Assembly: GCA_001552015.1 (NCBI GenBank)
Contig: CP010514.1
Location: forward strand, 390,001-422,000
From: Candidatus Nanopusillus acidilobi
GTDB taxonomy: Archaea; Nanobdellota; Nanobdellia; Nanobdellales; Nanobdellaceae
Reading direction: 5' to 3'
DNA length: 32,000 nucleotides
Shown piece by piece: positions 2,073 to 32,000 of the stretch (positions are counted from its first letter, which is position 1; the number at the start of each line of letters is the position of its first letter). The notes below the pieces were generated by a model that did not search any database, was not told the origin of the DNA, and saw only the letters and a program-made list of their open reading frames with translations. A program made the translations under genes and the position numbers.

Positions 2073-4058
2073 TATTCCCTGAACAAACATATATAATGCT
2101 ATTGTAGATAAAGTAGAAAATATGAAGAATATTAATATATTAACTATATAATATTTATACAAATAATAATAAAAACTCAATTTATCTCCACTATTTTCTA
2201 TACTATTAATTGCATATACAATTACAAAGGCTATTGCTACATTAAATATTCCAATTATAAGTATCATTGAAGCAGGTGATACGAGAGAATTTAAATTAAA
2301 TATATTAAATATAATTCCAGGTAATGTGCTTATATATTGAGAAACACCAGAATTGGATAATTCTAAATTAGATATTTGGTTAAATTGAAAAGATAATTTG
2401 TATAAAATTTCTATAATCATCACACTAACTGCACTTATTATTCCTAAAATAATTGGAGCTAAAATTCTTAATAGAGATTTTAATTGAGATAAATCTTCTG
2501 CTACAAGGTCTTTAATCCTCTCTTTTACTTTTGATATTAATAAAAAATATCTTGCAACCATACCTGTTATAATAGAAGCTTCTGTAGGAGATTGACTACT
2601 AGCTTCATATAACAATTCCATCGTAGCTCTCAATTGAGATGATGGAATTCTAGATAAAGCTCCATACCTAATATCAAATATTGAATCATAAAATGATAAA
2701 CCTGCTCTCAAATTTTGATATATTTTTGATATAAAATCTCCTATTGGACTACCTTTATATTTAGGATAAACATGTATCATTGCCTTTTCAATTGGATAAC
2801 CTTCATTTAATGCTGAACTTAAAGATAATAAAAATGATGGTAAATCTGTTTCTATTCTTTCTAAATTCTTATATAAATCCTTATAATTAAAATAATATAC
2901 AAAAGAAATTAATGAAACAGATAAACCTATTAAAAATACTAAAAATTCTGATAATAATATTCCTGAAACATCAAATTTATATAAATATTGATATATTACA
3001 AAAAAGATTATGAAAAATAACAATATACTTACTGAAAGTCCACTAATTATTGATATTAATTTATTTGTTAAATCTTTTTTCTTTAAATAATAGAATAAAT
3101 ATATATCATCATTTGAAAAAACACCAATCATTTTTGAAGAAATTGCATAATTAACTATATAAAATGCCATAAATGGTACTAAAATATCAAATAATATAAA
3201 TAAAACAAATGGACTAAATATACTTCCTAAAAATATTGATGCAAGGGGAAATATTGTTAATAACATAACTGGTAAAGTTATACCTAACATAGATACTAGG
3301 TTTATTGTAGATCTTATTTCCCTAGAAAATTCATATAGTTCATTTACTAATTCATCTAAAGCCTCTTCTATAGCTTTATCTATTTGAAAATTCCTCCTAT
3401 CCTTATCAGGATCATATAGAGCACTTAAAATAAGCATAACACCAATATAAAATGATTTTGAACTTTTTTCCCAAGATCTTGAATATTCTACTAAAGCTTC
3501 TGATGCAGAAACATATTTTCTATTATATATATCTCTTAACAACCTTAATAAATCTATTTTTAATGGTAAGTTAATATTTTTTGCAGCAAATAACATTGCT
3601 TGTTCTACATTTGGATTTTGCCTTAATTTAATAGCTAATAATAGTAATAGATTTATTAATTGAGATTTTTTCTTTGCATTCAGATTACTATACAAAACAA
3701 TATAATAATAATCAATCACTATATAAGATAATAAACCAAGAGAAATAAACAATAGGAAGTATAAAGGAGATATTATTATTGAAGGTATTATTCCTATAAA
3801 GATAAATAATATTAGAAAAAATATTGACGATGATTCTATTTGATCAATATTTACATCTAAAAGAAGTTCTTCATTTATTTTTTCAAAATTTTTTCTTTTA
3901 TTTTCATTTACTTTAATCTTTATTATATTTCCAAATGCTTTAACAATTTTTTCATAATATTTTATTTTATTACCGAAATAGAAATATTTGTATAATTTTA
4001 ATTTGCTTTCTAAATTTTGAATATCTAATCCATTTAACTCAATTTCTGATATATCCAT
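2049..4058 (-). CDS. FlaJ/TadC-type polytopic membrane platform protein (T2SS-F-like) of a type IV pilus/archaellum-like system
   Basis: 669 aa with many TM segments. It has two cytoplasmic helical modules, including LPSFLLSLSSALNEGYPIEKAM, which resembles the T2SS-F signature. Its start overlaps the end of the upstream ATPase gene by 25 nt. Confidence 0.65.
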   Translation of the reverse strand: MDISEIELNGLDIQNLESKLKLYKYFYFGNKIKYYEKIVKAFGNIIKIKVNENKRKNFEKINEELLLDVNIDQIESSSIFFLILFIFIGIIPSIIISPLYFLLFISLGLLSYIVIDYYYIVLYSNLNAKKKSQLINLLLLLAIKLRQNPNVEQAMLFAAKNINLPLKIDLLRLLRDIYNRKYVSASEALVEYSRSWEKSSKSFYIGVMLILSALYDPDKDRRNFQIDKAIEEALDELVNELYEFSREIRSTINLVSMLGITLPVMLLTIFPLASIFLGSIFSPFVLFILFDILVPFMAFYIVNYAISSKMIGVFSNDDIYLFYYLKKKDLTNKLISIISGLSVSILLFFIIFFVIYQYLYKFDVSGILLSEFLVFLIGLSVSLISFVYYFNYKDLYKNLERIETDLPSFLLSLSSALNEGYPIEKAMIHVYPKYKGSPIGDFISKIYQNLRAGLSFYDSIFDIRYGALSRIPSSQLRATMELLYEASSQSPTEASIITGMVARYFLLISKVKERIKDLVAEDLSQLKSLLRILAPIILGIISAVSVMIIEILYKLSFQFNQISNLELSNSGVSQYISTLPGIIFNIFNLNSLVSPASMILIIGIFNVAIAFVIVYAINSIENSGDKLSFYYYLYKYYIVNILIFFIFSTLSTIALYMFVQGILNINYFV

Positions 4059-6315: not shown

Positions 6316-6678
6316 ATGAATGATCCAGAGACACTTAGAAGATTAAAATATTTAGAAGAGAAAATTTCAATGTTCAACAATATATTACAAACTATGGATG
6401 TAACTACTAGGACTTCTTTAGATGATTTTAAATTAGAAATCGAAAATATTAAGAAGGAAATAAACGACATAAAACAAGAAATAAATGACATAGAAATAAA
6501 AATAAAAGCAATAATGGATGAATTATCAAATTTTGCTACTATAGACCAATTAAAAATTATAAATTCTATTTTAGATTACATAAATCCATTTGATTTTGTT
6601 ACCAAGAAAGAATTAGATAAATTAGTAAAAGAAAAAATTATGGAATATTTTGATAACTTATATAATCAGAAGAGTTAA
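6316..6678 (+). CDS. Hypothetical small coiled-coil protein
   Basis: 120-aa ORF with heptad-like, E/K/I-rich sequence (EIENIKKEINDIKQEINDIEIKIKAIMDEL). A TATA-like ttaatatatatt lies about 26 nt upstream of the ATG. I recognise no family. Confidence 0.55.
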   Translation: MNDPETLRRLKYLEEKISMFNNILQTMDVTTRTSLDDFKLEIENIKKEINDIKQEINDIEIKIKAIMDELSNFATIDQLKIINSILDYINPFDFVTKKELDKLVKEKIMEYFDNLYNQKS

Positions 6679-18313: not shown

Positions 18314-19963
18314 ATGTATGAATTTATTAATGATATTATAAAAAAGAGCCTTAGAAAGATTACCATAATATTTAGTATAATAATTGCATTAATAATTATA
18401 ATAGGAAAATATTTACCAGTATTAAAAATATATTATCCTGTTTTATATTTAGCAGCAATTGTTTTTTCATTGGAAGTTATATTTCTAGAATATTACAAAA
18501 CAAAAAAATCATTAGATAAATATTTACTATATTATATAGCATATTTATATTCTCTTTCATTTTCTACAAATAATACTAGAAGACTATTGGAAATTGCAAT
18601 TGAAGAAAAAGCAGAATTTAAGGATATAAATTATTATATGTCAAAAATTCTCTTTTTAACTAATAAATATAATTATACAATTCCAGAAGCTATAAGATAT
18701 ATCCTGCCTTATATTCCAAATAGTAATTTTAAGAGTTTTCTAGAAAGATTCGCAACTTCAATTGATATAGGAGAAGAAGTTGCAGAATTTTTATATAAAG
18801 AATATGAAACACAATTAGCAATATATGAAGCAAATTATGAAAAAGGTTTAGAAAATATAAGATTATTAGATGAATTTATAATATCTTTATTATCTTCTTT
18901 AGGATTTGCATTTTCATTAATATTATTTATACCATTCTTAGTAAGTATAAATATAGTATTTTTGCTAGCAGATTTCTTTATAATATTCATTGTAGTTAAT
19001 TTACTTATATATTATGTATCAAAATATTATATTCCAGATGATGGATTATGGTCTCATTCAAAAGAAAAACCAAAAGAATATATAACAATAAGATATTTAT
19101 TTTATCTTTTATCATTCTTATCTTATATATTATTTTTAGCACTATTTTTTGTATTAAAGTTACAATTATTGGAAGCATTTGCAATAGCAGCAACACCTTT
19201 AGCATATGTAAGTTATAGGATGATATTATTAGAGAGAGCATTAAAAATAAAAGAAAATCATTTTCCAGCATTTTTTAGTAGTATAATAGAATATTCGGAA
19301 ATATTTGGAAGTAATCAAACAAAAATATTAGATAATGTTATTATACATGATTTTGGTTTATTAAATGATGATATTAATAGATTAAGGAAAAGAATAAATA
19401 TAACAAAAAACTATTCCGAATCTTGGAAATATTTTATAGTTGAATTAGGAAGTTCAATTGCAGAAAAAATAATAAAGGTATTTGAAAAAGTTTTATCATA
19501 TAATGGAGATACAAAGAAAGCGGGAGATATGTTATATAATATATTAATTAAGATAACTGAACTTAGATCTAGAAAATCTCAATTTATATCCAATTTAAGG
19601 GGTATTATATATGGAACATATATAGCATTTATAGCAATTCTATTTATAATTGCTCAAATATTATATTTATTAAATCAAATGTTTCAAGGTGTATCTACAG
19701 CACTTGGTTCTGCAGTAGCACAAATAGGTATAAATCTATATACATTTTCAATACCTCTTTATGTATTGCAGGATTACATATTTGTAATATCTATTATTGA
19801 AGCTTTTATATTGGCAGGAACATTAAAAAATATAGACGGAGGATCTAAACTTGGAATGTTCTTGGATGCAGTAGTTATGATATGGTTAAGCGCATTATTA
19901 AATATTGGAGTATATTATTTATTCACTCATGTATTTTCTGGCTTATCTTTAGTAAAAATATAG
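18314..19963 (+). CDS. Second FlaJ/TadC-type membrane platform protein paralog (no ATPase adjacent)
   Basis: 549 aa and polytopic. Two cytoplasmic helical modules (YTIPEAIRYILPYIP...FLERFATSIDIGEEVAEFL, and FPAFFSSIIEYSEIFG...GDTKKAGDMLYN) follow the T2SS-F/FlaJ layout. Confidence 0.55.
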   Translation: MYEFINDIIKKSLRKITIIFSIIIALIIIIGKYLPVLKIYYPVLYLAAIVFSLEVIFLEYYKTKKSLDKYLLYYIAYLYSLSFSTNNTRRLLEIAIEEKAEFKDINYYMSKILFLTNKYNYTIPEAIRYILPYIPNSNFKSFLERFATSIDIGEEVAEFLYKEYETQLAIYEANYEKGLENIRLLDEFIISLLSSLGFAFSLILFIPFLVSINIVFLLADFFIIFIVVNLLIYYVSKYYIPDDGLWSHSKEKPKEYITIRYLFYLLSFLSYILFLALFFVLKLQLLEAFAIAATPLAYVSYRMILLERALKIKENHFPAFFSSIIEYSEIFGSNQTKILDNVIIHDFGLLNDDINRLRKRINITKNYSESWKYFIVELGSSIAEKIIKVFEKVLSYNGDTKKAGDMLYNILIKITELRSRKSQFISNLRGIIYGTYIAFIAILFIIAQILYLLNQMFQGVSTALGSAVAQIGINLYTFSIPLYVLQDYIFVISIIEAFILAGTLKNIDGGSKLGMFLDAVVMIWLSALLNIGVYYLFTHVFSGLSLVKI

Positions 19964-20403
19964 TTTATTTTTCTTTCTTTTGGTATAAAATCTTTTAATA
20001 TATTATTTTTAATATAAACACTGCATAAAATATCATTATTATCTTTTGCTATATAAAAACCATTTTCAAAATTTTTTTCCAATTTTATATTTTCATTAGA
20101 TCCATAAAAAAGATTTTCTTTTTTTATTTCAATACTTTTATTAGAATTTATTCCAAAGATCTGCGCTCCTTCTATACTGAATCTATATCTATTATTTTTT
20201 TCTATTTTAATTACATATAAACCATATTTTTTAATATATTTTTCATCTAAAAAATCTGAAAAATTCTTATTAAACATATATATTTTATCTTTATTAATAA
20301 AAAATCTATATTTTTTTATTATTGATCTATCTATATTTATATTATAGTATTCTTCTATTTTCTTAAATATTTCCTCTATATTCTTTTTATTTAATTCTTT
20401 CAT
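19927..20403 (-). CDS. Putative PUA-like/pre-PUA RNA-binding protein (NIP7 or RsmF C-terminal-domain-like)
   Basis: 158 aa. GLYVIKIEKNNRYRFSIEGAQIFG and the C-terminal GFYIAKDNNDILCSVYIKNNILKDFIPKERK resemble the G.vlv...g..lG.g...g.lKN.lPK..R ending of NIP7/RsmF C-terminal domains. ATGA overlap with the rfcL stop. 37-nt convergent overlap with 18314..19963. Confidence 0.35.
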   Translation of the reverse strand: MKELNKKNIEEIFKKIEEYYNINIDRSIIKKYRFFINKDKIYMFNKNFSDFLDEKYIKKYGLYVIKIEKNNRYRFSIEGAQIFGINSNKSIEIKKENLFYGSNENIKLEKNFENGFYIAKDNNDILCSVYIKNNILKDFIPKERKINYIFTKDKPENT

Positions 20404-21626
20404 AATTTTTCCACAGCTTCCTTTATATATGATATTTCATTTTCATTAAATCCCAATATTTCTGCATATTTTCTTCCTATTTTTTCATTTTCTTTCATTA
20501 AAACTATTAATGTATTTATATATACCTCTCTAACTCTATGCTTTGATGTATGAACCTTCTTTTGTAAATTTTTTGATAATTCTTCAATTTTTTCTCTTAT
20601 TTCCTTATTTTGCGATAGTCTCCTTACATATTGAGGCATCCTGTATTTTGTAAATTTATTATATCTTTTTTCCTTTGCCAATGCAACACCAGCATACATT
20701 AATGTTGTAAAATATTTTAATAGATCCCAATATTGTCTTCTATAAATTCTTCCATAAAATACAATTGCTAATGATAACCAATTATAAGCTTCATATATTT
20801 CTTTTATATTTTCATATTCATTTGATATATTTTCTTCAACCCATGCTTTAATTTCTTCAGGATCCATATCTACATCTGCAAATGGTAATGTAGCACCATT
20901 TATTGTATTTGCCTTAAACATTTGACCTAATGCTCTAAATATTGTAATTTCTCTTTCTCTATAACCTAAAACTTCTAAATCCTTTAATGTAATATGATTA
21001 GTCATTGTTGCTAATGCCTGTAAATCATTTATTGCACTTCTTAAATCACCAGAAGATCTATCTGCAAGTGCAGATAATGCATTATCATCAATTGTTATTT
21101 TTTCATTTGCACAAATCCTCTTTAATTGTCTTATTATATCAGTATTTGATAATTTCTTAAATTCAATCATATCACATAAATCTCTTAATTTCTTAAATTT
21201 TGGATCCCATGGATCGTTTGCAGTTAATATTATTGGCCATCTTGATTCTTCTATTATTTTTACCAATGCTCCAACTCCTCCTCTATCTTGAAATCCTGCT
21301 AATCCATCAACTTCATCAATCAATATTATTCTTCCTTTTTTGAGAAATGGTTTTCCTTTTATTGCTTCTCCCAATTTTTCATGTATAATCCTTGCATTTC
21401 TATTATCTGAAGCATTTAATTCTACAACTTCATAATTTAAATCATTTGCAATTGCATATATTGATGATGTTTTTCCAACACCTGGAGGTCCATATATTAA
21501 TAATGCTTTTTTATTTACATTTGGATATTTTTCAATAAAGGACTTTATTTTTCCAATAGCTTCTGATTGATTAATTATTTCATTAATATGCTTTGGTGCA
21601 TATTTTTTTATCCATGGTTCAACCAT
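20400..21626 (-). CDS. rfcL: Replication factor C large subunit
   Basis: N-terminus PWIKKYAPKHINEIINQ, Walker A GPPGVGKTS, Walker B ILIDEVDG and sensor GDLRSAINDLQ. 408 aa. Confidence 0.88.
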   Translation of the reverse strand: MVEPWIKKYAPKHINEIINQSEAIGKIKSFIEKYPNVNKKALLIYGPPGVGKTSSIYAIANDLNYEVVELNASDNRNARIIHEKLGEAIKGKPFLKKGRIILIDEVDGLAGFQDRGGVGALVKIIEESRWPIILTANDPWDPKFKKLRDLCDMIEFKKLSNTDIIRQLKRICANEKITIDDNALSALADRSSGDLRSAINDLQALATMTNHITLKDLEVLGYREREITIFRALGQMFKANTINGATLPFADVDMDPEEIKAWVEENISNEYENIKEIYEAYNWLSLAIVFYGRIYRRQYWDLLKYFTTLMYAGVALAKEKRYNKFTKYRMPQYVRRLSQNKEIREKIEELSKNLQKKVHTSKHRVREVYINTLIVLMKENEKIGRKYAEILGFNENEISYIKEAVEKL

Positions 21627-21739
21627 TATTTAATATTTATAATTAGAATATTAAAACATATGGAATATATTTTATATCACCACTATCTTATAATAGATAG
21701 TATTGATAAGTTTAAGAAATTTTAATAATATATTTAGTT

Positions 21740-22417
21740 ATGAAAGAAACAAACTCGAATCAAAATCAAAAGCAACCTAAAACATTAGAAGAAGCATTAG
21801 AAGAAGCAAAGGTAAACAAAGTATTAATGGAAACCTCAAAAATATATGATTCTTATCTATACAAAGTAGGAGCGGCACTCACAAGAATAATAGAAAAAGC
21901 ACCACAGGCTGCAGAAGAATACAAAAGATTAGTAGAAAACTTACAGAAGTGGGGCGAATGTAAAAGTTTTTTAACCAGAGATAAAAATACTCTCCAAAAG
22001 TGTAGAGATGAATACAACTTTAAGAATGGGTTAATGGAAGGCATCAATGAATATTTATATTATATATTAGTACGTACACCAGAAGAAATTAAAGAATTTA
22101 CAGAAGCTTTGAAATTTTTAGCAGAAGAGCAAGTAATAGATCGCTTGTATAAACTCTATCAAGAAGTAAAAAAACTAAAATTAGAATATTTATTAGAAGT
22201 AAATAAATATAATCAAATGTCTCCAGAAGATCTAGATCAAAGGTTATATGAAACCTCATCTGAGTCTGTTGAGTCTCTTATATTTCAGTATTTGGAGAAC
22301 CCTAAAGGTCGTAAAGAACAATTTATGAAATATTTAGGATATACACCATTAGAAGATGCTGATATAGCAGCATGTAGATTATATGGTGGTTGTAAAACAG
22401 AAAAACAAAATACATAA
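21740..22417 (+). CDS. Hypothetical alpha-helical protein A1 (no family recognised), compositionally atypical
   Basis: 225-aa ORF richer in A/E/L/R/Q and poorer in I/N than its neighbours. It shows weak collinear similarity to 22584..23180, for example EEIKEFTEALKFLAEEQVIDRLYKLY versus TNIQKFKKGLEYLLNDGVYNQLHNMY. Confidence 0.6.
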   Translation: MKETNSNQNQKQPKTLEEALEEAKVNKVLMETSKIYDSYLYKVGAALTRIIEKAPQAAEEYKRLVENLQKWGECKSFLTRDKNTLQKCRDEYNFKNGLMEGINEYLYYILVRTPEEIKEFTEALKFLAEEQVIDRLYKLYQEVKKLKLEYLLEVNKYNQMSPEDLDQRLYETSSESVESLIFQYLENPKGRKEQFMKYLGYTPLEDADIAACRLYGGCKTEKQNT

Positions 22418-22433
22418 GACTTTTTGATAAAAT

Positions 22434-22511
22434 CTTTTTTACTTAATTTTTATTTAATGACCAAATAAAGGGAAAAATCCCCTAGTATATTACTTCCACT
22501 TTTAACTATTT
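22434..22511. repeat. Copy 1 of a ~75-nt element; degenerate duplicate of the intergenic region plus 3' end of gene 23207..23623
   Basis: Shares the exact 23-mer TTTTATTTAATGACCAAATAAAG (22448-22470 and 23201-23223) and roughly 70-80% identity by hand alignment over ~75 nt with 23191-23263. The minus-strand reading frame is broken here (...*YTRGFFPLFGH*). Confidence 0.75.
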
Positions 22512-22583
22512 TTAAGTATAGTTATTAGCTACTAAAATAATGGCATAAATTTGAAAAATTTCTTAATATATTAATTAATTATA

Positions 22584-23180
22584 ATGAAACAGTATTCAGT
22601 AATATTAGAGAAAGCCCGACCTATATTAGAGAGAAATTCAAATATTTTACCACTATTAGAAAAATTAATAGAAAAAGCTTATTCTCCCCATTCATCTAAA
22701 TTCGATATTAAAATAGTGGATATTATTGAAGACTATATTGATAAGTGTATAGATCCTACAAATATTCAGAAATTCAAAAAAGGCTTAGAATACCTATTGA
22801 ACGATGGAGTATATAATCAACTACATAACATGTATCTGTACATGCTTAATTATAAAAGCCCAGATATGCTTAGTGACGATACAGAGCTAGCACATAATCC
22901 ATTATTAGCAACAGCATTTAATATATCTCCTTCATTAGAAGAAGAACTCAAGAATATATTATATAGATATTTGCGCTCCCCAATCCCACCAATATCGGAT
23001 CATAGTTTCTCATATTGGGAGATTGAAAGAAAACGTAAACAGGAAATGGCAGCATATGATGCTATTTATCATGCTATCCAATATTTATTGAGCAATCCTG
23101 ATTTATATATACAGAATATTAAATTAGGCAATTATTCAATTATATTTAATGATAAACCTTGTGGGAATAAAACAAAATAA
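22584..23180 (+). CDS. Hypothetical alpha-helical protein A2, distant paralog of A1
   Basis: 198-aa ORF with collinear weak similarity to A1. The N-terminal KLIEKA matches RIIEKA, the central FKKGLEYL..V..L..MY block matches, and NILYRYLRSP matches SLIFQYLENP. An oligo-T run follows the stop. Confidence 0.6.
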   Translation: MKQYSVILEKARPILERNSNILPLLEKLIEKAYSPHSSKFDIKIVDIIEDYIDKCIDPTNIQKFKKGLEYLLNDGVYNQLHNMYLYMLNYKSPDMLSDDTELAHNPLLATAFNISPSLEEELKNILYRYLRSPIPPISDHSFSYWEIERKRKQEMAAYDAIYHAIQYLLSNPDLYIQNIKLGNYSIIFNDKPCGNKTK

Positions 23181-23190
23181 TAAAATTAGC

Positions 23191-23263
23191 CCTTTTTTAA
23201 TTTTATTTAATGACCAAATAAAGAAAAAAGTCCACTTAATATACCACCGCTTTCAACTATTTG
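23191..23263. repeat. Copy 2 of the ~75-nt element, spanning the A2/B intergenic region and the last ~19 codons of gene 23207..23623
   Basis: See copy 1. It contains an A/T-only imperfect hairpin CTTTTTT-aat-TTTATTT-[aatgacc]-AAATAAA-g-AAAAAAG (23192-23230). This places T-runs on both strands and may act as a bidirectional terminator. Confidence 0.7.
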
Positions 23264-23623
23264 ACATGGTAAAATAGCTTCAAATTGATTACCATTCACA
23301 ATATAATATACCCTTACATATGCATTTTCTATAGCTAAACTATTATTTACACTACATGCATTCATAGATCCATAATTTATATCTCCTAAATTACAGGATG
23401 AATTTTCATAAAAATTATATACTGTTACATTCTCCAAATTTTGTTTTGCAGTAATTATAATGAGAGATGTTCCATTTGCATATTGACAACTATATGTAAA
23501 ATATTCCATATATGGAGGTAAATATGATGTTACATAATATGTATAGATTGCGTATAGTATAACCAATATAAAAACTGCTACACCAACCCAAATCACAAAT
23601 TTGGGTATTTTTGAGATATCCAT
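23207..23623 (-). CDS. Small membrane-anchored or secreted protein B with Cys residues and N-glycosylation sequons
   Basis: 138 aa. The N-terminal signal-anchor is MDISKIPKFVIWVGVAVFILVILYAIY. Four Cys and the sequons NGT, NVT and NSS are present. The C-terminus is hydrophobic and Gly-rich (SGGILSGLFSLFGH). Confidence 0.6.
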   Translation of the reverse strand: MDISKIPKFVIWVGVAVFILVILYAIYTYYVTSYLPPYMEYFTYSCQYANGTSLIIITAKQNLENVTVYNFYENSSCNLGDINYGSMNACSVNNSLAIENAYVRVYYIVNGNQFEAILPCQIVESGGILSGLFSLFGH

Positions 23624-23633
23624 AAAATTAATT

Positions 23634-23885
23634 TTAATCTACATATATATAAACATATACATATTTATTCCCCTTGTCTTCGATCTTCATATTTTTTATA
23701 ATTTCTTCATATTTTTTATCATCTATATCAAATAGATCTGAATATTTATTTAATATATAATCTAATATTAGTCTTTTTATCATAATATCTTCATTCCCAT
23801 GCAAATTTTCAGCATTATATTCATCTAAAACACCCTCTATTATATATTTTGGAATCTTAAATTCATATTCAATATTATATGGCAT
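23634..23885 (-). CDS. Small hypothetical protein, possibly ribbon-helix-helix (CopG-like)
   Basis: The track start at 23942 is a TTG. The ATG at 23883-23885 has the TATA-like tttatatt ~25 nt upstream. The 83-aa product EYEFKIPKYIIEGVLDEYNAENLHGNEDIMIKRLILDYILNKY fits a strand-helix-turn-helix RHH pattern by eye. Confidence 0.4.
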   Translation of the reverse strand: MPYNIEYEFKIPKYIIEGVLDEYNAENLHGNEDIMIKRLILDYILNKYSDLFDIDDKKYEEIIKNMKIEDKGNKYVYVYIYVD

Positions 23886-23958
23886 GTAAAATTTTACTAT
23901 TTTCCAAAATATAAATGATTGCTTTATATTCTTGAATTTCAAAAATGATTATCAAAAA

Positions 23959-24927
23959 TTATTTTCTATTTTGTAAACCTCTAAGCCCTATATATGCTAG
24001 CAAAGCACCAAGTTGTATTATTGGATCTGAACCTTCTAATAATCTATATTCTATTTCTCCAGCATAATATATTATATCTAATTTTTCTTTTTCAGATATA
24101 TTCATAGAATAAACTTCCTTTGATAGATATTTAATTATATCTTCTCCTGCAAGACCATATTTTAGCATTAAATCAATTAATTTTTCCCTAGCTTCTACAA
24201 ATTTTCCTTCATATGCTAATTTTAATACTTCCTGTAATTCTTGTGGTTTTGCTACAGAAGCAACTTCATATATTAACTCTGGAGTTATATCTTTAGAATA
24301 TAAAGCTGCAGCTTGTAACATATTTATTGATTTTCTCATATCACCTTCTGAAATATAATATATTGCTTCTAATGCATCATCACTTATATTTAGATTTTCT
24401 TTTTCAGCTATTGATCTTAATAATTCAAACACATCCTTTTTATCTAATTGTTTAAATCTAAATATAACAGTTCTAGATTGTATCGGTTCTATAATTTTTG
24501 ATGAATAATTACATGCCAATATAAATCTTGTTATTGAAGAATATTCTTCCATTATTCTTCTTAAAGCTTGTTGTGCATCTCTTGTCATTGCATCTGCCTC
24601 ATCTAGAAATATAATTTTAAATGGAACATCACCAATTGGTTTTGTTCTTGCAAATTCTTTTACCTTTTCCCTTATTACATCAATCCCTCTATCATCCGAA
24701 GCATTTAATTGTAATATATTTTGTTCCCATTTATCTCCATATAATTCTCTTGCTAATGCCAATGCAGCAGTTGTTTTTCCAACACCAGCAGGTCCTGCAA
24801 ATAATAAATGAGGCATATTTTTATTTTCCACAAATGCTTTCAATCTTTTTACTATCTCATCCTGTCCTTTTATATCATCCAATCTTTTTGGTCTATATTT
24901 TTCAGTCCATATTTCATTCTCTGGCAT
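23959..24927 (-). CDS. rfcS: Replication factor C small subunit
   Basis: [16 protein letters not shown], Walker [10 protein letters not shown], Walker [21 protein letters not shown] and [11 protein letters not shown]. 322 aa with no intein. Confidence 0.95.
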
Positions 24928-29735: not shown

Positions 29736-30266
29736 ATGATTGGTTTTCATCATTACATATATAATATGGACATACGTAGTGATATGGCTGAACTAGTGCT
29801 AAATTACTTACCACAAGGCGGAGTAGCTGCCGATCTTGGTTGTGGAGCAGGTAGGTTTTGTAAGGTGCTATTAAATAAAGCTAGCAAAGTTTACTGTGTA
29901 GATATAAATGACTATGCCATTAATATGGCAAAAGAAAATATTAAGGATGATAGAGCTGTGTTCCTGAATGAAGATGCATCATCAACATCAATACCTGCCA
30001 ACTCTGTAGATCTAGTCATAATGGTTAACGCATTCCATGATATGGAGAATAAAAATAAGGTAGCTTTAGAAGTAAGTAGAATTCTTAAGCAGGGTGGCCT
30101 AGCTTTAATTATAGAGTCTAAACCAGGTTTAACAATGCATGGCCCACCACCATGGTTAAGAATGAGCCCCAATGATGTAATTAAATACTTCAATAATCCT
30201 CAATTTAAAGTAGAAGGTATAAAGGATTTAGGAGATTTTAACGCTATAGTAATTAAAAAGCTTTAA
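29736..30266 (+). CDS. Class I SAM-dependent methyltransferase (Methyltransf_11/25-like), compositionally foreign
   Basis: Motif I AADLGCGAGRF, motif II/III region VDLVIMVNAFH and post-motif LKQGGLALII. Hand counts on four 60-nt lines give 35-47% G+C, against ~18-25% in most of the window. The start could also be an internal ATG (M11 or M17). Confidence 0.8.
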   Translation: MIGFHHYIYNMDIRSDMAELVLNYLPQGGVAADLGCGAGRFCKVLLNKASKVYCVDINDYAINMAKENIKDDRAVFLNEDASSTSIPANSVDLVIMVNAFHDMENKNKVALEVSRILKQGGLALIIESKPGLTMHGPPPWLRMSPNDVIKYFNNPQFKVEGIKDLGDFNAIVIKKL

Positions 30267-31473: not shown

Positions 31474-31508
31474 AAAATTTATAAAATAATGGTGTTATAT
31501 ATTACTAA

Positions 31509-32000
31509 ATGGCTGAAGAAATTTTAAGTGAGGAAGATAAACAAACATTAAAAGAAATGTTCGACAAAAGCTTGAAGAACCCGGTAGAAATAACTGTATA
31601 CTTGGATGAAAAAAATAATAAGGAAACTAGTGATTTTGCAAGAAAAATTGGAGAACTATTAATGCAAATAAATGATAAGATAAAGTTTGAATTCCTAGAT
31701 GCATATGATCCAAAGGTAGAAGAAGAAATGAAAAGCAAGAATTTATTAATAGATAAATATGGAAATAGAAGAGGTCCAATATTTGTATTCAAGAAATATC
31801 CAGGAATTATATATTATGGATTACCATCTGGAGAAGAATTTCCAATATTTTTAGAAGATATAATACATGTATCAAATGAACATTTTGACATAGATGGAGC
31901 TACAGCAAAGAAATTGGCATTAATAAATGAACCTTTAGATATATATGTATTTGTAACTCCAACATGTCCATATTGTCCATATATGACACATCATTCCCAT
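31509..32000 (+). CDS. Protein disulfide oxidoreductase (PfPDO/glutaredoxin-like, two thioredoxin folds), 3' end outside the window
   Basis: ATG at 31509 with an open frame to the window edge. The translation ...GIIYYGLPSGEEFPIFLEDIIHVS...IYVFVTPTCPYCPYM carries the C-terminal CPYC active site. The N-terminal unit lacks a CxxC. This replaces the antisense track ORF 31505..31792. Confidence 0.75.
   Translation, partial: MAEEILSEEDKQTLKEMFDKSLKNPVEITVYLDEKNNKETSDFARKIGELLMQINDKIKFEFLDAYDPKVEEEMKSKNLLIDKYGNRRGPIFVFKKYPGIIYYGLPSGEEFPIFLEDIIHVSNEHFDIDGATAKKLALINEPLDIYVFVTPTCPYCPYMTHHSH

Follow-up and report, generated by a model that had tools for sequence, protein, structure and literature searches.

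A strain-variable cassette array of an orphan helical protein family between the replication factor C genes of Candidatus Nanopusillus acidilobi

In the nanoarchaeon Candidatus Nanopusillus acidilobi the genes for the small and the large subunit of replication factor C (RFC), rfcS and rfcL, lie on the same strand and are separated by four open reading frames (ORFs), here called A1, A2, ORF138 and ORF83. They were studied in a stretch of 32,000 nucleotides of contig CP010514.1 (positions 390,001 to 422,000, renumbered from 1 and termed the window in the following), and the features between rfcL and rfcS are compiled in Table 1. The gene order agrees with Supplementary Data 1 of Wurch et al. 2016 (PMC4935971), where the genes appear solely as uncharacterised proteins and ORF138 is listed under arCOG05419. 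An earlier note, made from the sequence of this stretch, had recognised the two RFC genes and the four intervening ORFs and had assigned none of the latter to a family; all this was borne out. Pfam identified both RFC subunits, an AAA+ or RFC domain occurs in rfcS and rfcL only and in none of A1, A2, ORF83 and ORF138, and 0/4 of these ORFs match a curated family in Pfam, NCBIfam, PHROGs or PADLOC. The locus comprises two parts, a conserved rfcS-ORF83-ORF138 string and a cassette array, built in place, that probably provides a repertoire for biotic interaction.

Table 1. Genes and sequence features from rfcL to rfcS, with positions in the window
Feature	Position	Strand	Basis or remark
rfcL (Nps_02350), RFC large subunit, fixed left border of the array	20400..21626	-	Pfam AAA, RFC lid and RFC1 C-terminal domains
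Divergent promoter region, common to rfcL and A1	21627..21739	.	alignment of 33 cassette upstream regions
Inverted repeat, candidate operator, ACTATCT-TATAAT-AGATAGT	21682..21701	.	-58 to -39 from the A1 ATG
TATA-like box of A1, TTTAAGAAA	21711..21719	+	-29 to -21 from the A1 ATG; function inferred
A1 (Nps_02355, AMD29895.1), 225 aa, subfamily C cassette	21740..22417	+	exact identity
Inter-cassette spacer: T-runs after A1, ORF138' pseudo-fragment, A2 promoter	22418..22583	.	
Pseudo-copy of the ORF138 3' end and downstream region	22443..22512	.	duplicates 23196-23265 (repeat search)
TATA-like box of A2, TTTGAAAAA	22550..22558	+	-34 to -26 from the A2 ATG
A2 (Nps_02360, AMD29896.1), 198 aa, subfamily F (A2-type branch)	22584..23180	+	exact identity
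ORF138 (Nps_02365), arCOG05419, fixed right border of the array	23207..23623	-	
ORF83 (Nps_02370), small acidic protein	23634..23885	-	100% identical
rfcS (Nps_02375), RFC small subunit, first gene of the rfcS-ORF83-ORF138 string	23959..24927	-	Pfam Rep_fac_C, AAA and lid domains

Species-representative genomes were scanned with rfcL, which gave ten Nanopusillaceae loci, and tblastn was run across them; the loci compared on the rfcS side were L001, L003-L005, L007-L010, L013 and L019, with L009 standing for YN1 and L010 for KM4331-08. The order rfcS-ORF83-ORF138, on the same strand, was found in 10/10 of the loci covering this side, at 46-92% identity. ORF83 and ORF138 are 77-92% identical in close relatives and 46-56% identical in YN1 and KM4331-08, and ORF138 keeps its place throughout the Nanopusillaceae loci, at 52-89% identity. 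In YN1 and KM4331-08 it stops about 45 bp short of rfcL with nothing between, the A genes being absent at the site. Both ORFs are thus ancestral core genes, because they follow rfcS in every Nanopusillaceae genome examined. The earlier note had joined all four ORFs into one accessory module and had itself taken the same position across related genomes as the mark of an ancestral core arrangement; such a position was found for ORF83 and ORF138, also in genomes without A genes, so that the four-gene module has to be abandoned, while its view of A1 and A2 as a strain-variable, opposite-strand and duplicated pair holds. An interruption between rfcS and rfcL is not unusual in DPANN archaea, since the pair is split by three unrelated genes in a Woesearchaeota genome as well. 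In YN1 the ORF83 homologue is separated from rfcS by a gene for 70 aa (L009 8805-9017, minus strand), which begins with a type IV pilin-like sequence (MKSISPIIATILLIVIVVALAG...) and is absent from the window.

ORF138 contains one N-terminal hydrophobic anchor (residues 9-27), four Cys residues and four N-x-S/T sequons, in line with its earlier description as a signal-anchored Cys/sequon protein, and is probably extracellular. Its comparison with PADLOC gave KwaA at E 0.077 only, which is not significant. ORF83 has an isoelectric point (pI) of 4.6, a mean column identity of 92% and 104 close homologues, every one from Nanopusillus-type sources; its translation comprises 83 aa from the ATG or 102 aa from a TTG at 23942, and gene callers and relatives favour the ATG. 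For both genes the ratio of non-synonymous to synonymous substitutions (dN/dS) amounts to 0.15-0.19, slightly above that of the housekeeping neighbours. The suggestion that ORF83 is a ribbon-helix-helix (RHH)-like protein proved unsupported, because its AlphaFold model (predicted local distance difference test, pLDDT, 77) displays the topology beta-alpha-alpha-alpha-beta-beta, the protein is acidic, and the best Foldseek match in the PDB reached E 0.82, with no RHH protein among the top 50. Pfam and NCBIfam lend it no support either; the alignment is shallow, so the exclusion is not a firm one.

The interval between ORF138 and rfcL ranges among the loci from 43 bp to 4.9 kb and accommodates 0 to at least 5 genes (6 domains), hereafter cassettes, every one antisense to rfcL. 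A-type genes are missing from L001, L009 and L010; elsewhere the A-type relatives are 27-45% identical or fall below tblastn detection (L005), while the flanks are 92-97% identical (rfcL 92-96% among close relatives). When the cassettes were grouped at a minimum of 45% identity into lettered subfamilies, about 16 complete arrays gave at least 13 compositions without a fixed order. Read from rfcL to ORF138, the window carries C-F, L003 H-E-C, L004 G-D-B-E-A, L013 H-A-E-G-B, L026 B-A-M-B, L032 H-E-C-B-K and L052 E-B-D-K, and contig L024 is made up of six cassettes and nothing else. With the conserved promoter segment as a DNA probe against metagenome contigs, 38 loci were retrieved, almost all of them further arrays, and three of them unrelated loci at about 30% G+C.

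In strains whose ORF83 is 100% identical to that of the window, an unrelated first cassette replaces A1; the DNA is 96-97% identical rightwards of 22404 and 93-94% identical leftwards of 21728, and the resumption of high identity at these two positions places the breakpoints of the swap at the cassette edges. The A1-type allele of L019 occupies position 2 and differs from the A1 of the window by a dS of 0.048, far below the dS of 0.2-0.39 of its flanking genes, from which a move of this cassette between diverged backgrounds follows. L001 has an empty site with an internally deleted A2-like remnant (ATG AAA TAG), and L008 a decayed cassette fragment of 74 aa. The pattern across strains is one of cassettes being gained, lost, reordered, fused and swapped, with breakpoints at cassette edges. 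Some genomes contain a second array of the family, more stable and of constant order orf476-I-L-J-pyrG, in which three cassettes with the same promoter and operator lie between a 476-aa helical ORF and pyrG (L045 8960-12657; L054 4622-8378; L060; L062 1448-5144). In N. acidilobi, MNT, antitoxin and PIN genes take its place before the CTP synthase gene (Nps_02560-02570). The genes called in the ~10 kb to the left and right of the slot include neither an integrase nor a reverse transcriptase family. A diversity-generating retroelement would combine such a reverse transcriptase with a template and a variable repeat that differ specifically at adenines; the divergence of the family is spread over whole proteins, a formal search for such a repeat pair not having been made.

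The approximately 113-bp promoter region between rfcL and A1 precedes most family cassettes across strains, and in other strains the conserved flank ends at 21723-21770. Within it, the 80 nt preceding the gene show strong conservation in most of 33 cassettes, the A2-type and a few others diverging, with the consensus ACTAT[CT]T-N6-AGATAGT at about -58 to -39 and a TATA-like box (family consensus GATTTAAAAATTTTT) at about -30. This distance from the ATG points to leaderless or near-leaderless mRNA. The inverted repeat, a candidate operator, has a single match in the window, the perfect copy in front of A1. In about 330 kb of related loci, with up to two mismatches allowed, it is confined to array regions bar one exception, and gene maps place the matches upstream of cassettes. 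The TATA-like box is present in all cassettes; A2 has kept it as well, its inverted repeat being degenerate.

In alignments the spacers between cassettes, about 170-250 bp long, prove to be composites of the borders of the array itself. They bring together, in this order, the last ~40 nt of ORF138 with the T-runs downstream, the first ~22 nt of rfcL (TTTTTATCCATGGyTCAACCAT) and the full 113-bp promoter region. In the spacer of the window the rfcL' piece is missing; the ORF138' fragment is 85% identical over a 41-nt core to 23196-23265, and 22443-22512 matches the ORF138 3' ends of other strains with BLASTN E values of 1e-8 to 1e-19. The array thus arose in place by tandem duplication, because the spacers join the ORF138 3' end to the rfcL 5' end and its promoter. 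Spacers of L004, L013 and L019 (e.g., L004 island 3002-3233) retain the rfcL start codon, the first ~7 codons and the rfcL-proximal promoter; these copies are oriented antisense to the cassette before them and read into it, so that they could conceivably give rise to short antisense transcripts.

The products of the cassettes form a single family. In a direct BLASTP comparison A1 and A2 give E 0.06, which is not significant; they are tied through intermediates in BLAST, and these links, together with reciprocal tests of hidden Markov models (HMMs) against sequences, join A1, A2 and the slot genes, so that on this sequence evidence A1 and A2 are the distant paralogs that they had been taken for. 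The family domain of about 200 aa is predicted to be all-alpha, and some members consist of two fused domains (about 400 aa). The motifs LP-x-L...LI, GLE-x-L, LY..Y and LL-x-[ND]-P are matched by A1 as well as A2. The AlphaFold model of A1 (pLDDT 85; predicted template modelling score, pTM, 0.81) contains eight helices. Neither A1 nor A2 shows a hydrophobic segment, signal peptide, lipobox or membrane segment. A2 is devoid of an N-terminal part of about 45 aa found in other members of the A2-type branch. A disordered peptide at the N-terminus, M-[VIT]-D-[TP]-S-S-Y-Q-N-Q-S-K-T-[LS]-E-E (window 21740-21815; L002-L058), recurs in several otherwise diverged subfamilies; A2 lacks it. Many members carry a Cys 4-8 residues before the C-terminus (LYGGCKTEKQNT, KPCGNKTK, RESCKPIPS; A1 residues 212-225, A2 193-198), and the gene table of N. 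acidilobi includes a putative protein-S-isoprenylcysteine methyltransferase, Nps_00335.

Relatives of the family numbered 46 among 5.8 billion clusters in a word-indexed search with the family profile and 35 among 1.84 billion representatives in an exhaustive HMMER search. Most are metagenome proteins, and those with a name are all hypothetical proteins of Nanopusillus or Nanobsidianus; as far as these searches reach, the family is restricted to the Nanopusillus lineage. No relative was found in GTDB genomes by a pattern scan with A1, in IMG/VR viral contigs with an A1-type alignment, or in GenBank phages by tblastn, and A1 and A2 matched neither PHROGs nor the PADLOC defence models. Pfam, applied to 19 family members, gave no family matched by more than one member; a match to Imm30 (E 0.084) in 1/19 members is at chance level, and no other Imm family was matched. 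A profile search against PDB sequences remained at chance level too (best E 0.05). Foldseek with the A1 model against the PDB and BFVD yielded no significant match (best E 0.036, TM <0.37), the top hits being designed helical repeats and BAR domains, i.e., generic helices. Thus the fold searches recommended earlier, carried out for A1 and ORF83, produced no significant match and assigned no housekeeping family.

A distinct composition had been ascribed to A1 and A2, and this applies in part. Their overall G+C content (29.6% and 28.8%) is like that of rfcS (28.2%) and rfcL (26.7%), with the window at 24.0%, and their amino-acid make-up resembles that of the window's conserved genes and is not foreign-looking. 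What stands out is the G+C content at third codon positions (GC3), 0.19 in A1 and 0.22 in A2 versus about 0.09-0.14 for most genes. The feature is family-wide, with a mean of 0.183 (n=124) versus 0.118 for core genes (n=182; Mann-Whitney p=7e-40, the samples being non-independent). Three other ORFs of the window also have a raised GC3, 29736-30266 (+, 0.25), 31505-31792 (-, 0.24) and 6316-6678 (+, 0.19).

Selection was assessed on 121 orthologous cassette pairs of at least 70% amino-acid identity; dS between paralogs at about 40% identity is unreliable and was left unused. The median dN/dS of the cassettes is 0.65 (interquartile range 0.52-0.83), with 14% of pairs above 1, i.e., about five times that of neighbouring genes, ten of which have medians of 0.08-0.19 and 0% above 1 (RFC genes 0.08-0.12). 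For A1 the values against close strains are 0.43-0.53, for A2 0.41-0.80. Within A1, the corresponding polymorphism ratio pN/pS was computed by codon window from 7 unique alleles. Codons 1-25 are under strong purifying selection (pN/pS 0.08-0.23, pS 0.12-0.18); codons 76-100, the Cys-pair region, and the C-terminal third lie at about 0.3-0.6, apart from one C-terminal window at 1.09; codons 36-60, 101-120 and 136-175 attain 1.2-2.8. A mosaic of conserved scaffold and diversifying patches fits these values, drawn from small windows, better than would uniform decay. Across the loci 124 cassette ORFs are intact, in genomes of about 0.6 Mb. In the proteome of the N. acidilobi-Acidilobus system, which covered about a third of the predicted proteins (PMC4935971), 0.44% of the spectra belong to A1, at rank 55 by spectra, 67 by IDP-MS1 and 56 by MIT (Suppl. 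Data 1), near RNA polymerase subunit B or TFB and similar to the RFC subunits. A2, ORF138 and ORF83 went undetected there.

The surroundings of the slot are very tightly packed, yet the slot itself takes kilobases of insertion. A NIP7-like pre-PUA gene (19927-20403) overlaps the rfcL stop codon by 4 nt and a convergent FlaJ-like gene by 37 nt. The latter (18314-19963, +) codes for a 549-aa FlaJ/TadC-like membrane protein with a weak Pfam match to T2SSF (E 3e-4) and is cut or split in two metagenome strains, L016 (2455-3225, 257 aa) and L018 (852-2501, 167 + 247 aa). Jarett et al. 2018 (PMC6142677) described a high density of non-synonymous single-nucleotide polymorphisms in a FlaJ/TadC homologue of the Nanopusillus lineage, which may or may not be the gene in the window. 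A scan of the window with Rfam was empty at gathering threshold.

In the explanation that we favour, a fixed slot between ORF138 and rfcL holds a tandem array of autonomous cassettes, A1 and A2 being the two of N. acidilobi. Each cassette encodes a soluble all-alpha protein and is equipped with a TATA-like box placed for a leaderless mRNA, T-rich terminators after the gene and, in most cases, the candidate operator. A unit with its ends at about codon 8 of rfcL and at about the last 12 ORF138 codons was duplicated in tandem, each duplication leaving behind a spacer composed of an ORF138 3' fragment, an rfcL 5' fragment and the promoter. Spacers and true borders together could then supply the homology for unequal crossing-over and allelic replacement, and homologous recombination is the simplest explanation of the exchange. 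The proteins evolve fast, some helices at pN/pS above 1, while keeping the core, the N-terminal peptide and the C-terminal LL-x-NP motif. The array probably acts as a variable repertoire of intracellular binding proteins in a biotic conflict or compatibility interaction, be it with the crenarchaeal host, viruses or competitors. A role of A1 and A2 in defence or interaction had been raised before and is possible. This function in biotic interaction, as opposed to replication, is the weakest step and follows from evolutionary pattern only, the array being hypervariable, dispensable, multi-copy and expressed.

Several points weigh against this proposal. The homology searches offer no clue to the function of the family. 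A surface or host-contact role would need a novel export route, because signal peptide and membrane segment are lacking. Recombination through the spacers would rest on the position of breakpoints, and several arrays were assembled from metagenomes, in which chimeras could form at repeats of about 200 bp; arrays do, however, already differ among the genome from culture, that of the Nst1 assembly and the single-cell genome L004. The windowed pN/pS values come from seven alleles with few synonymous sites, and relaxed constraint, too, could produce a dN/dS that is high but averages below 1. A2 may be decaying, given its degenerate operator, missing N-terminal region and non-detection in the proteome. 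For the raised GC3, GC-biased gene conversion associated with recombination is no more than a guess.

Relaxed constraint is at the heart of a neutral alternative, according to which an unstable, duplication-prone site undergoes birth and death of genes that drift to pseudogenes and have no specific role. The dN/dS values, high yet mostly below 1, would agree with this, as would the remnants in L001 and L008 (74 aa), the strains without cassettes and the proteome data on A2. We regard it nonetheless as unlikely in view of 124 intact ORFs in a streamlined genome of about 0.6 Mb and of arrays maintained with 5 cassettes (6 on the cassette-only contig). Furthermore, the predicted fold is confident and its core positions are conserved, the promoter is kept in most cassettes, purifying selection on the N-terminal peptide and the C-terminal motif occurs beside segments with pN/pS above 1, and A1 ranges among the ~60 most abundant detected proteins.

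A more specific version of the interaction reading would take the cassettes for an effector-like repertoire, the conserved N-terminal peptide for a signal that targets the proteins by an unconventional route to the crenarchaeal host, and the cassette content for the determinant of host compatibility or range. To this we attach a small probability; if true, DPANN archaea would have their first identified symbiosis-effector system.

Less probable still is antigenic or phase variation of a surface protein of the vls, pilS or vsp type, with one expressed gene refreshed from cassettes. Tandem diverged paralogs with conserved repeats between them in an obligate ectosymbiont do recall such loci, and Foldseek lists a weak match of the helical Borrelia lipoprotein BBA64 (E 0.24, TM 0.21), which is, however, at chance level. 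Loci such as vls and pilS combine one expression site with silent, promoterless partial cassettes, and their product is surface-exposed. The Nanopusillus cassettes, on the other hand, are full ORFs; as all have their own start codon and most the conserved promoter, there are no silent donors and no single expression site, and the proteins possess no hydrophobic N-terminus, signal peptide, lipobox or membrane segment.

Early on it was suggested that an rfcS-rfcL operon had received the four ORFs as one module, acquired horizontally and of viral, host or defence-island origin. The strain variability, opposite orientation and raised GC3 of A1 and A2 could be quoted in its favour, as could the toxin-antitoxin-type genes (MNT, PIN) at the site of the second array in N. 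acidilobi. ORF83 and ORF138, however, are in place in every relative, including those without A genes, and the relatives of the A family within the 1.84 billion representatives come only from Nanopusillus-type sources. There is no match to IMG/VR, GenBank phages, PHROGs, PADLOC or BFVD, no integrase among the genes called up to ~10 kb away on both sides, and no tRNA gene in the window; a prophage or integrated mobile element was rejected on the same grounds. The spacers, built as they are from rfcL and ORF138 border copies, speak for local duplication. Foreign acquisition is thus essentially excluded, and the acquired module is extremely improbable. Equally hard to credit is that the cassettes encode replication accessory factors acting with RFC or PCNA and co-regulated through the divergent rfcL promoter: the site between the RFC genes, the common promoter region and an A1 abundance resembling that of the RFC subunits would suit such a role, but the genes are absent from some strains and, at this position, from YN1 and KM4331-08, the family is hypervariable compared with the RFC genes, the second array adjoins pyrG away from replication genes, and the split Woesearchaeota pair implies that the position carries little functional information.

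The in-place array with an interaction repertoire as its probable purpose can be compared with known systems. Fast-evolving paralog arrays in host-dependent microbes are already known. The helical paralog families of Borrelia and the variable loci of Mycoplasma likewise comprise lineage-specific, fast-evolving tandem paralogs with strain-specific copy number and recombination-promoting repeats in obligate symbionts with tiny genomes. In contrast to them, the Nanopusillus proteins are soluble and without export signal, each cassette is its own transcription unit, the organisms are Archaea (DPANN), and the spacers are recognisable copies of flanking core genes. With integron arrays the locus has in common a fixed chromosomal site, a variable number of single-gene cassettes in one orientation, conserved boundary elements and strain-shuffled content. 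In integrons an IntI tyrosine recombinase is encoded beside an array of promoterless cassettes, which have attC sites and depend on a common Pc promoter. The Nanopusillus array differs in that an integrase is missing from the called genes within ~10 kb on either side, the boundaries are border copies of 170-250 bp instead of attC hairpins, most cassettes have their own promoter, and all belong to one protein family. Arrays of orphan immunity genes against polymorphic toxins and acquired interbacterial defence islands also feature small cytoplasmic, mostly helical, fast-diverging tandem paralogs in strain-specific repertoires; here, though, no toxin gene is adjacent, the neighbours being rfcL and ORF138, and no Imm family is matched. 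What is new, then, is the protein family, the occurrence of such an array in DPANN archaea, the integron-like layout without an integrase, and the spacers derived from bordering core genes. The papers on Nanopusillus that were consulted, Jarett et al. 2018 (PMC6142677) among them, make no mention of the locus.

With regard to the biology of these organisms, the locus is a compact, precisely bounded hot spot that can take up several cassettes, all from a single orphan family, within a genome of about 0.6 Mb and that differs even among strains with near-identical neighbouring genes. Nanoarchaeota are wholly dependent on contact with a host archaeon. To our knowledge, almost nothing has been established about the genes that decide host compatibility, or about how the tiny nanoarchaeal genomes stay adaptable. 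A1 is abundant in the one proteome that is available for a cultured system, and N. acidilobi is in co-culture with Acidilobus, which provides a testable handle. The locus further represents a clean natural case of a tandem duplication that makes its own recombination substrates in the form of border-derived spacers, and it illustrates that genes lying inside a 'core operon' are not necessarily of foreign origin.

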